From Catajapyx aquilonaris (Eukaryota): a DNA stretch of 35,235 nucleotides. Positions 26,176 through 28,682 of the stretch are shown here, piece by piece. A model generated the notes under the pieces. It made no database searches and was not told the origin of the DNA. It saw only the letters and a list, made by a program, of their open reading frames with translations. Every line of letters begins with the position of its first letter. Position 1 is the first letter of the stretch. The stretch is from the NCBI GenBank assembly GCA_000934665.2, contig JYFJ02004100.1, positions 1 to 35,235 of the forward strand. The letters are read 5' to 3'. Both the position numbers and the translations under genes were made by a program.

Positions 26176-28682
26176 TTAGATCCGTCCGAGTGCGAGGGTC
26201 ACTCCTATCCATCTCGTATATTTTCCGACCCTAGTGTATAACGACACTACTTGTGTAGGGTCACAGGTCACGGTCCTTTTTTGCCCGATTCCAACGCTGA
26301 CTATGCCCTGAAGTGACCAGTGTTCGTCGAATGTAGGACCGCTCAAAAAGACCATTCCTCCTCCACTGTGGCCATTACAAGCGCCAGTTCCTAAACAATG
26401 AAAAGTACATATAGTCGTTACTTATTAACATTGCTGACAATTACCGTTACCGTCTTGGTGTCCAGCGCAGTATGTCGTGGATCGGACAAACGAAGGAGAC
26501 AGATTTTCGATGCAATCCTGAGGTGACTTAACTGCAATCTCCGCCATTTGAAATACGTCTGACATTATTTCGTCATCAGTCCGACCCCATCCCATCACCT
26601 GTTAATTATTTAGTTAATTAATTAATTAATTAACAACAAACCCAAACTGCAAGCAATGAACTTACGATTCCAGTGTTTCCGACCTGAAGAAGAGTCTCTT
26701 CTTCCAAAGTGTCCGAATCTGTTGGATAGCACACTGGACTAACGTGATTATTAATGTCCACTGGCTTGTCCAGTATGATCACTGCAATGTCCGAATCGTA
26801 ATTGACCGGATTGTAGTTTTCATGCACGAATATCGTTTTGATCTGTTGGTTTTAAATAATACGAGTTAACCCCCATGATTTTTTGCACACATGTTGCTTA
26901 TTCTTACTTTTCGTGTTTGCGAATTTGTTACAGACTCGTTGTATTGCGAATAATGCTTTCCCAGCTGGATTCGAAGCATGTTTGGTTGAATCAACGACAC
27001 TTCTTTTTGCATAGTCACACAATGAGCAGCTGTGTTCAAAAAGGAGACTAATTAGCACTTTTTTAAAATATCAATACATTTTTTTACTAGTCTTGCCTGT
27101 AATCAAAGCATCTTCTGTAATTAGAGACGCGCCGCAATGATAATTCCAGTTGCTTTTGTGGTTCATGTAAATTGCTGCATGCCATGGCCATTGTCCTTGT
27201 GATGGTATACCACCTGGATTTGCAGGAGCCAGAGACTTTCCACATACTTAAAAAAATAATTAGCAGTTCTCATTAAGAATGGTACGTAACACCGTGTGTG
27301 CTTACTTGGAACACATTTGAACGTTTCGCTTGTTCTCCAGGAGCCGTCTCCAAGACAGGTGGCAAATGACATTGGAATGTTGCTAATTGATGTATGCAAA
27401 TCGTCACACTCGACTTGACACTGGGTTCCAACAGGCACGTCAACAATCGAGCCATTGTCACCACAAGTCATCTTAATTCCTCTCAGCTGTTTGCGAAGAT
27501 CGGGACAAAAGTCAGGCTCGTATTTCCCTGCAATTTGCGAAATATGATTATCTGTCTATAGTTCCTACATGGCCCACGTACTTTTTGCGCTCATTTTGCA
27601 AACAAACGGCCTGTGCTGAGAGCAACTTATGTCGTTCCACTGCCCATTGTTGTCGTACATTATTGCGCAGTTTTCGGCCTCCAGAAAGTTCGGTTCTCCT
27701 TTGTTCCAGTTGAAATAATTGGTAGGAGAATCATCGGTCCATCGCCATTCAATCCTGGATCCTCTGAGCATCTTAAGTCCAATAAACGTGTCTCTTCGCA
27801 TATGTCCTGAAAATATGTATAACTTATATGAGAACCTTTATACACAATAGAATAATGAGTGCGTACTTGTGAAAAACTCTTGTTCTTCTTGGCTGTGTAA
27901 CGATGCAAGGTCTGCTCCTTCTTGCATGTCCTGACAGATGTATCTGGCCCTCTCCCATGATGTCGCATAGCCAGAAAAGTAGTAACACACGTAATTGTTG
28001 AACAGCCATCTGTCAGGGCACTCATCTGACAAGTAAATGTGCTGGTAATTAGTATATAGGAACAAAGTGTACACAGAGAGATTGTATATACATACTGCTG
28101 TACGGCTTGAAACTGCAGGCGAAATTATTACTGTCGGTACACTTCACATTGTTCCACCTTCCTTTCCATGACTCGTTTTCTGAAGTTTTGTACACCGCAA
28201 CACACTCTTCGGCCTCTGGATAATTGGGCTCACCTTTCTTCCAATTAGTGTATGTCGATTTTGACTCGTCTGTCCAACACCAATCGTTCTTCTCACATCT
28301 GTTGTATCCGAGCCAAATATCCGCAGATATCCAGCCTGGCATGTATGAGAAAATATTGTTGCTTACATTGTATTGTTGTGGTGATCGCGACTTACCTTGT
28401 AAGAATTTGTTTTCTGCTTGATCATCTACGCTGGCCAGATCCGCTGTTTTGTCAATCTCTTTGCACACTCTGTGAGCATCGAACCAGTTGAGAGCATCGG
28501 GGACAAATCGGTAGTAATAATCGCCATGGTGTGTCCATCCTTCGGGACAACAATTTATTCCGAAATCTGCCGAATTTTTGTAAAATCATATATGATTGCA
28601 TAAGCTGTCACGAAAGAATTCATATAATTACTGTACCTGCCAAAATCGAAGCGTAGAAGACTAGCACATGAATGGAATTCAT
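26176..28682 (-). CDS. Dual C-type lectin-Sushi-serine protease-like, copy 5 (activation-deficient variant)
   Basis: Same exon structure with an open frame. MNSIHVLVFYASILA; CTL1 EPN/WNN; CTL2 EPN/WND; linker APANPGGIPSQGQWPW without the LVx activation motif; AAHC, DSDIA, GACNGHSGGG. Requires a GC-AG intron at 27096-27030. Confidence 0.87.

Follow-up and report, generated by a model that had tools for sequence, protein, structure and literature searches.

The locus described here raises the question of what becomes of a serine protease when its zymogen activation switch is lost and its catalytic triad is kept. The window analysed is the whole stretch of 35,235 nucleotides of contig JYFJ02004100.1 (positions 1 to 35,235, forward strand; assembly GCA_000934665.2) from Catajapyx aquilonaris, and its minus strand harbors seven tandem paralogs of an S1-type protease gene, named c1 to c7 by plus-strand order. 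The fifth of them, hereafter copy 5, lacks both halves of the switch, i.e. the activation cleavage site and Asp194, and keeps His57, Asp102, Ser195 and the oxyanion residue Gly193. The reading that we favor, with a probability of about 55%, is that copy 5 is a maintained, uncleavable, zymogen-locked single-chain paralog with little or no proteolysis, which would likely act as a non-catalytic regulator of its siblings.

The switch was compared through the alignment of the paralog gene models and through a codon alignment. The activation region of c1–c4 and c6 reads CGKSLAPA(T/A)P-LV(T/K)-GG(K/T)P(A/T)YEGQWPWH, whereas that of copy 5 reads CGKSLAPANP---GGIPS-QGQWPWH. A 9-nt deletion takes out the Leu15-Val16-Thr/Lys17 of the siblings, that is, the scissile bond together with the N-terminus that inserts after cleavage, both of which are present in all five full-length siblings. 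At position 194, the codon GAC (Asp) of the six other copies is replaced by CAC (His), while the residues around this position are the same as those of the siblings (18 out of 18) and the S1-pocket residues match those of c6 and c7. All 11 indels separating copy 5 from its siblings are multiples of three. The sites concerned are the following (a vertical bar marks a deletion junction or, in protein motifs, the activation cut):

27212..27217, minus strand: junction of the 9-nt in-frame deletion, CCA|GGT, between 27215 and 27214 (codon alignment)
27197..27202, minus strand: junction of a 3-nt in-frame deletion, between 27200 and 27199, removing the Tyr that the siblings have in P(A/T)YEGQ (codon alignment)
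26368..26370, minus strand: CAC, His at position 194 (motif GHSGG), which in the alignment with solved proteases falls on the Asp of their GDSGG
26365..26367, minus strand: AGT, the Ser195 that is kept (codon alignment)

An earlier note, made from the sequence alone, had claimed an exact in-frame deletion of the LVx residues, a GHSGG motif (CAC at 26370-26368) in place of GDSGG, and the retention of His, Asp and Ser with all indels in frame. The deletion proved correct to the base, the substitution and the frame are as described, and the three triad codons could be located. Both of the lesions that it named therefore stand; its list was too short, since there are also a one-codon deletion five residues downstream, a three-codon deletion before Cys182 and the loss of a lectin-domain cysteine.

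The consequence for activation follows from the way in which S1 proteases are switched on. The activating cut exposes Ile/Val16, whose side chain packs in a pocket and whose amino group pairs with Asp194; in this way the activation loops become ordered, as do the S1 site and the oxyanion hole, and the energetics quoted are 4-5 plus 2-3 kcal/mol, corresponding to a 1e6-1e7-fold shift (PMC13194640). Judged from its sequence and from this established mechanism, copy 5 cannot be activated canonically, either by itself or by its siblings, because the Leu-Val bond, residues 15-17 and the salt bridge at 194 are all gone.

The model of copy 5 was rebuilt by hand from the window sequence, and coordinates are given as window positions. 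The gene lies on the minus strand, from an ATG at 28682 to a stop codon ending at 26176, and consists of 11 exons with 624 codons (624 aa) in an uninterrupted frame. Its introns are 54-70 nt long and have usable splice sites in 10 cases out of 10; nine are GT-AG, and intron 7 is GC-AG (donor GCAAGA). This donor is common to copy 5 (27097) and c6 (30237), whereas c1-c4 have GT at the equivalent site; since c6 carries the identical GC donor, we consider it a conserved feature and not a lesion. Domains were assigned with Pfam on the exon-wise translations, and their order is signal peptide, two C-type lectin domains (Lectin_C, exons 2-5), a Sushi domain (exon 6, E 2.6e-5) sitting immediately ahead of the protease domain, and a trypsin domain spliced from five exons. 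The trypsin profile PF00089 matches exons 7, 9, 10 and 11 (E 1.1e-3 to 6.8e-11; profile positions 8-220), with no match for exon 8 alone. The solved structures matching exon 11 include chymotrypsinogen C, the MASPs and Grass, with MASP-3, MASP-2 and MASP-1 among the best.

28637..28682, minus strand: exon 1, start codon and signal peptide, GT donor in phase 1 (gene model)
28396..28566, minus strand: exon 2, N-terminal half of lectin domain 1 (gene model, Pfam)
28096..28335, minus strand: exon 3, second half of lectin domain 1, with EPN ... WNN motifs (gene model, Pfam, alignment)
27867..28025, minus strand: exon 4, first half of lectin domain 2 (gene model, Pfam)
27582..27806, minus strand: exon 5, second half of lectin domain 2, with EPN ... 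WND motifs (gene model, Pfam, alignment)
27306..27527, minus strand: exon 6, Sushi/CCP domain (gene model, Pfam)
27097..27246, minus strand: exon 7, linker Cys, former activation site and start of the protease domain, ending at the GC donor (gene model, alignment)
26908..27029, minus strand: exon 8, His57 codon CAT at 27024-27022 (gene model, alignment)
26666..26842, minus strand: exon 9, Asp102 codon GAC at 26791-26789 (gene model, alignment)
26451..26598, minus strand: exon 10, three-codon deletion in the loop preceding Cys182 (gene model, indel comparison)
26176..26390, minus strand: exon 11, active-site loop GTGACNG-H-SGGGMVFLSGP and stop codon (gene model, codon alignment)
26128..26133, minus strand: putative polyadenylation signal AATAAA, 43 nt past the stop codon (read from the sequence)

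The lectin motifs of copy 5 (EPN...WNN and EPN...WND) are the same as in c6. In exon 2, at alignment column 34, a Tyr replaces the hairpin Cys of the lectin domain that is found in all five of the other full-length copies; the cysteine total is 28 in copy 5 versus 29, an odd number, in the siblings.

According to Nei-Gojobori estimates of synonymous (dS) and nonsynonymous (dN) divergence, copy 5 differs from c6 by a dS of 0.85 and a dN of 0.21, and from c1-c4 by a saturated dS of more than 1.7; the corresponding dS is 0.17-0.25 among c1-c4 and 0.13 between c6 and c7. Copy 5 is, hence, an old paralog. Selection was estimated by maximum likelihood with a codon branch model written for this analysis (GY94, F3x4 frequencies), on an iqtree topology that ignores possible gene conversion. 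Over the whole gene (624 codons), the dN/dS ratio (omega) is 0.246 on the copy 5 branch versus 0.297 in the background (likelihood ratio test, LRT, 0.99, p = 0.32), and omega = 1 on that branch is rejected (LRT 55.5, p = 9e-14). In the protease domain (270 codons), omega is 0.218 for copy 5 versus 0.208, and omega = 1 is again rejected (p = 1.4e-8); in the lectin-Sushi part it is 0.267 versus 0.359 (p = 5.8e-7). According to these data, copy 5 is under purifying selection, with an omega of 0.22-0.25 on its branch that is indistinguishable from that of the siblings, and the selection on an open frame suggested in the earlier note is upheld. The wider reading of that note, a non-activatable pseudo-protease serving as decoy, cofactor or brake, is supported in part: the loss of the canonical switch is confirmed, while catalytic inertness and the proposed role are conjectural.

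The pattern of indels points in the same direction. Among the paralogs, only 24 out of 94 intron indels are multiples of three (the introns of c1-c4 have 0.12-0.15 indels per substitution), and for this reason the 11 in-frame indels out of 11 of copy 5 represent a non-neutral pattern. Furthermore, a rough neutral model, based on intron-derived rates and on simple target sizes estimated for this analysis, predicts about 320 disabling mutations for each unit of neutral divergence of copy 5; under it, copy 5, if free of constraint, would reach no more than 0.94% divergence before its chance of being intact fell to P = 0.05, and, once one half of the switch had been hit, the other would be struck before any disabling mutation with a probability of 0.08-0.7%. 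That both halves were lost while the gene remained intact hence speaks for continued selection on it once the first of them was gone.

The frame in which copy 5 has to be read is given by its siblings, whose models were obtained by projecting the copy 5 model through exon-wise tblastn and conserved splice phases. Their intact frames code for 639-644 aa in c1-c4 and for 636 aa in c6:

8905-11633, minus strand: c1, 11 exons like copy 5, canonical L|VTGG and GDSGG
14072-16852, minus strand: c2, 11 exons like copy 5, canonical L|VTGG and GDSGG
18460-21069, minus strand: c3, 11 exons like copy 5, canonical L|VTGG and GDSGG
22096-24701, minus strand: c4, 11 exons like copy 5, canonical L|VTGG and GDSGG
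29208..32358, minus strand: c6, closest to copy 5 among the full-length copies, canonical L|VKGG and GDSGG
34002..34940, minus strand: c7, exons 8-11 only (same exon-wise projection)

Exon 7 of c7 was not found within the 295 nt remaining up to the window end. The exon 1 assignment of c6 is the least certain piece of the gene models; its intron 1 (31841-32312) measures 472 nt in the model, versus 70-85 nt in the other copies. The donor of c3 intron 8 (around 19214) is GCTAGT, versus GTTAGT in c1, c2 and c4; this is another GC-AG intron or else a splice site that has weakened.

EPN and WN(D/N) are mannose-type sugar-binding motifs. Lectin domain 2 carries QPD...WND in c1, c2 and c4 and EPN...WND in c3, c5 and c6, which suggests that the predicted sugar preference has diversified within one tandem cluster.

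To place this family, the full protein library was searched with HMMER, using exon 11 of copy 5 as query; 123 hits were retrieved, the best having 47-57% identity over this last exon. The best full-length relatives combine LDLa repeats, Sushi and Trypsin domains, with 2-4 LDLa repeats in each of P0001, P0011, P0029 and P0052, and one of them bears a gastrulation-defective N-terminal domain. In copy 5, Pfam analysis of the exon translations gave no Ldl_recept_a match, and two Lectin_C domains are found instead. The activation regions of the relatives read ...TPL|IVHG, ...IPL|IVNG, ...NPL|VVHG and similar; the Leu|Val cut site proposed in the earlier note is supported by these sequences. Pro as the P1 residue of the siblings had also been considered, and it was dropped since relatives reading PL|IVxG place the cut at Leu|Val. 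Of the 96 domain stretches that reach from His57 to position 194 in the hidden Markov model (HMM) alignment, 50 have Leu at P1, 17 have Arg and five have Phe. The siblings have TPL|V(T/K)GG, Asp194, a Gly at assigned position 189 and no acidic S1 residue; this chymoelastase-type activation site (P1 Leu) is present in them and not in copy 5.

The LDLa/Sushi/Trypsin layout with a Leu cut site is what we take to be that of ModSP, HP14 and MSP, the modular initiator proteases of arthropods, a naming based on architecture and not on database labels. ModSP is presented as an enzyme of the chymoelastase-like type, which favors Leu at P1 and autoactivates on recognition complexes (PMC10732536). Because of their TPL|V(T/K)GG site, their Asp194 and the lack of an acidic S1 residue, the siblings look like ModSP-type autoactivating zymogens of the chymoelastase type, and they carry two lectin domains in the place that LDLa repeats occupy in ModSP.

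How rare the state of copy 5 is was evaluated through a census of 166 domain stretches spanning position 194, copy 5 and c6 included. Asp194 is present in 159 of them, together with Ser195 in 145 and without it in 14; the latter follow the classical route of serine protease homologs (SPHs), in agreement with the earlier note's remark that typical arthropod SPHs mutate Ser195 instead, and none of them is in the state of copy 5. Six stretches other than copy 5 have no Asp194. Two domains of P0005, scored as having the triad and Met194, turned out by eye to be misaligned and to have Leu at 195; P0018, with Gly194 and its Ser retained, is a fragment in which the N-terminal part is missing; in P0013 a conservative Glu194 occurs together with Asn57 in place of His57; and P0060 (Met194) and P0114 (Lys194) also lack Ser195. 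No other case of the combination seen in copy 5, with the triad kept and the switch gone, was therefore found among the 166 census stretches.

A second protease-like domain was also observed at residues ~770-1040 of P0001; it has no xVxG N-terminus, carries Gln57 and Ile195 and keeps Asp194, and is an instance of the classical homolog route in the same chain as an active domain.

No ortholog of copy 5 in related species emerged from the protein library, the word-indexed or the metagenome searches. None was found among the 123 library hits (best identity 57%). Word-indexed searches with exon 11 of copy 5 gave 209 candidates at longer lengths, none with E <= 1e-5, and zero candidates at near lengths; with exon 11 of c6 they gave 68 candidates at longer lengths, none with E <= 1e-6. 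Scanning metagenomes with the seven-copy alignment retrieved 39 related loci, in which Asp occupies its position in 34 of 34 C-x-G-x-SGG motifs, and the best of which (L005) is a canonical ModSP-like gene; no copy 5-like locus was found in these scans, nor among the 270 pattern matches to copy 5 exon 11, none of which was confirmed. Matches in the ESM Atlas were limited to generic trypsin clusters.

A protein in the same state has been described outside arthropods. In 2026, human PRSS23 was presented as a pseudoprotease that has its triad but not the Ile16-Asp194 switch; in PRSS23 and its paralog PRSS35 the triad is present while Ile16, Asp194 and His40 are missing, a state conserved across vertebrates, and PRSS23 showed no probe labelling or substrate turnover, with a cellular effect that survives a Ser-to-Ala change (PMC13194640). 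Copy 5 resembles these proteins in keeping the triad, in lacking Ile/Val16, in its non-acidic residue 194 and in being secreted. It differs from PRSS23 in that the N-terminus and the scissile bond are deleted, whereas there they are substituted, and in having His and not Ala at 194; moreover, its chain also includes lectin and Sushi domains, and the paralogs around it are canonical. We infer that its state arose independently of PRSS23, since only one branch of the array shows the loss and the siblings are canonical. The kind was already known from PRSS23; copy 5 is an independent instance of it with its own anatomy. A limited literature search turned up neither further papers on the triad-kept, switch-less state besides PRSS23 nor a paper describing the lectin-lectin-Sushi-protease architecture, and we do not claim that either is unpublished.

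The comparison may be extended to other known systems. With ModSP of Drosophila, HP14 of Manduca and MSP of Tenebrio, the array shares a Sushi domain directly before the protease, a GDSGGG-type loop and, in the siblings, the P1 Leu; unlike ModSP, it has two C-type lectin domains in place of LDLa repeats, so that recognition appears to be built into the protease chain, and unlike all three, copy 5 is without the activation site and Asp194. Like the classical SPHs (clip-domain and similar), copy 5 is a protease-fold paralog within an immune protease family, probably with no normal catalysis; in those homologs it is Ser195, His57 or Asp102 that is lost, Asp194 being usually retained, while copy 5 shows the reverse, with all three kept. 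In MASP, C1r, C1s and horseshoe-crab factor C, Sushi-protease modules autoactivate when the lectin or pattern-recognition part clusters on microbes. In the MASP/C1 systems the lectin is a separate protein, whereas in the array it is part of the chain, and all of these systems are known to keep the canonical switch. Finally, single-chain tPA and C2a/factor B are active with no insertion of their own N-terminus; they keep an acidic 194 paired with Lys156 or Arg, whereas copy 5 has His (PMC13194640).

Together, these data allow a possible scenario to be depicted. The siblings would be zymogens activating themselves by a cut after Leu, with the new Val N-terminus anchored by Asp194, and copy 5 would remain single-chain and zymogen-like. 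Its proteolytic activity would be scarce or absent; by analogy with PRSS23 and with the energetics quoted for it, it is most likely low (PMC13194640). Copy 5 should still bind mannose-type glycans via its two lectin domains, as predicted from their motifs, and present a conserved protease-fold surface, and on shared glycan targets it might regulate the siblings non-catalytically, as a competitor, a brake or a scaffold. In a family working by surface clustering, it would dilute or cap the clusters of c6/c7-type enzymes having its EPN motifs, or scaffold them. The second lesion was plausibly released by the first or compensatory to it, His194 removing a buried carboxylate that would have been left unpaired; work on trypsinogen mutants reportedly indicates that losing an unpaired buried Asp stabilises the uncleaved fold.

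Several points weigh against this scenario. The lesions cannot be dated on the long branch of copy 5, and if they are recent, the low omega comes mostly from an earlier canonical period. The protease domain shows zero relaxation compared with the siblings, unlike most dead enzymes; this suits a binding role, and retained single-chain catalysis equally well. There are 24 copy-5-only changes at protease columns that are otherwise invariant, and these, as well as the lost lectin-domain Cys, might represent early decay. The neutral model is a coarse one, and the contig support described below comes from a single sample, possibly the source of the assembly itself, and is compatible with an individual-specific allele.

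The alternative that survives best, which we nevertheless consider unlikely, is that copy 5 works as a protease in its single-chain form, independently of cleavage. His194 would remove the buried charge and might itself fill the anchor position, with the bulkier Val139Met and Leu155Phe (landmark numbering) helping to fill the pocket; the active state would be either constitutive or induced by glycan or partner binding, and copy 5 could make the first cut in its zymogen siblings. The equal omega of the protease domain, the retained triad and Gly193, the 18 conserved flanking residues and the S1 pocket shared with c6 and c7 are all in line with this. Copy-5-only substitutions are found at positions 99, 139, 155, 215 and 227, numbered from landmark residues, and presumably lying near the cleft and the insertion pocket; they could represent remodelling and not decay. 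Single-chain activity has its precedents in tPA and C2a; however, the exceptions cited all use an acidic 194, which copy 5 does not have, the loss of Ile16 packing and of the salt bridge places a protease 1e6-1e7-fold from the active state, and PRSS23, the sole protein tested in this state, is inactive (PMC13194640).

Appreciably less probable is the possibility that copy 5 is a redundant copy that has recently lost its function, i.e. the first stage of a pseudogene, and that its low omega is the memory of a zymogen past. Redundancy is provided by at least six paralogs, and the lost Cys, three extra in-frame deletions, the 24 unique changes and the lack of a placeable date for the lesions would all fit. 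Against this, the 624-codon frame is intact, as are its start and stop codons and the splice-site pairs of the 10 introns, every indel is in frame versus 26% in introns, and the neutral period would be limited to about 1% divergence, within which two or three hits on the switch without a disabling hit have a probability of 0.08-0.7%. Where the haplotype contigs discussed below differ in coding sequence, both changes are synonymous, a weak indication as it concerns two sites.

A slightly more doubtful version of the active form would make His194 a replacement switch, in which the imidazole, together with Met139 and Phe155, would occupy the pocket and hold the oxyanion hole and the S1 site in working order in the uncut chain, maybe tuned by pH or glycan clustering. 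If this were true, copy 5 would be a constitutively competent spark making the first cut in the zymogen siblings; this would solve the start-up of the array and represent an S1A activation mode without an acidic 194.

Lastly, that both changes are assembly or sequencing errors is scarcely credible, as independently built contigs of three runs agree at both sites and as paralog collapse cannot produce two in-frame deletions plus a transversion at a dS of at least 0.85 from every sibling.

The contigs in question are Logan contigs (unitig-level), independently built from the runs X1, X2 and X3 of one sample. Across 26000-28900, their main contigs have no differences and no variant at either lesion site, with base-for-base agreement over 26000-26856 and 26930/27080-28900; neither GAC nor the LV(T/K) codons are seen in them, so that the lesions stand when checked in this way. 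An assembler slip at both lesions is thus unlikely, even though three runs of one sample provide no independent biological replication. A further run from another sample and study (X5, with 0.61 of sampled words in common) gave two short pieces, 26700-26745 and 26769-26813, which carry 3-4 differences each, are paralog-like and cover neither lesion site.

At 26857-27079 (introns 7 and 8 and exon 8 of copy 5), alternative contigs were observed at a depth of 10-12 versus 25-34, with 10 substitutions and four small deletions, and they look like a second haplotype. Within exon 8 they differ at 26929 and 27019, both synonymous by codon reading.

The rest of the window contains other features. At 2371-3108 on the minus strand, and probably up to ~5400, there is a partial gene for an adhesion-type G protein-coupled receptor (GPCR), with a GPS motif (PF01825, E 7.6e-14) followed by a secretin-family seven-transmembrane domain (PF00002, E 2.9e-20). 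Open frames at 7885-8560 on the plus strand, with a weak RNA recognition motif (RRM) match (PF00076, E 8.5e-4, narrowly missing the curated cutoff), probably belong to an RNA-binding protein gene adjoining the array. Between the GPCR and RRM genes lies a minisatellite block (6628-7708) whose repeats measure 36, 80/161, 22 and 37 nt; the last of these is present in 9.1 copies with a 93% match. Moreover, a perfect (TA)42 microsatellite is found at 34690-34773, within intron 8 of c7, and a lone N at 24830, in the intergenic region between c4 and c5.

If the favored reading of copy 5 as a zymogen-locked regulator is true, this gene would add a second natural example, of independent origin, in which a serine protease is disabled or rewired through its zymogen switch and not through its triad, with canonical paralogs only 0.2 dN away as a ready-made comparison. 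An annotation based on the triad would label copy 5 as active, and annotation of this kind credits proteins with more catalytic competence than they have. The array also deserves attention for itself, as it joins lectin recognition and a ModSP-like initiator protease in a single chain; within it, an uncleavable copy 5, of the EPN type like c6, could plausibly regulate, from inside the cluster, the thresholds of autoactivation in invertebrate immunity.

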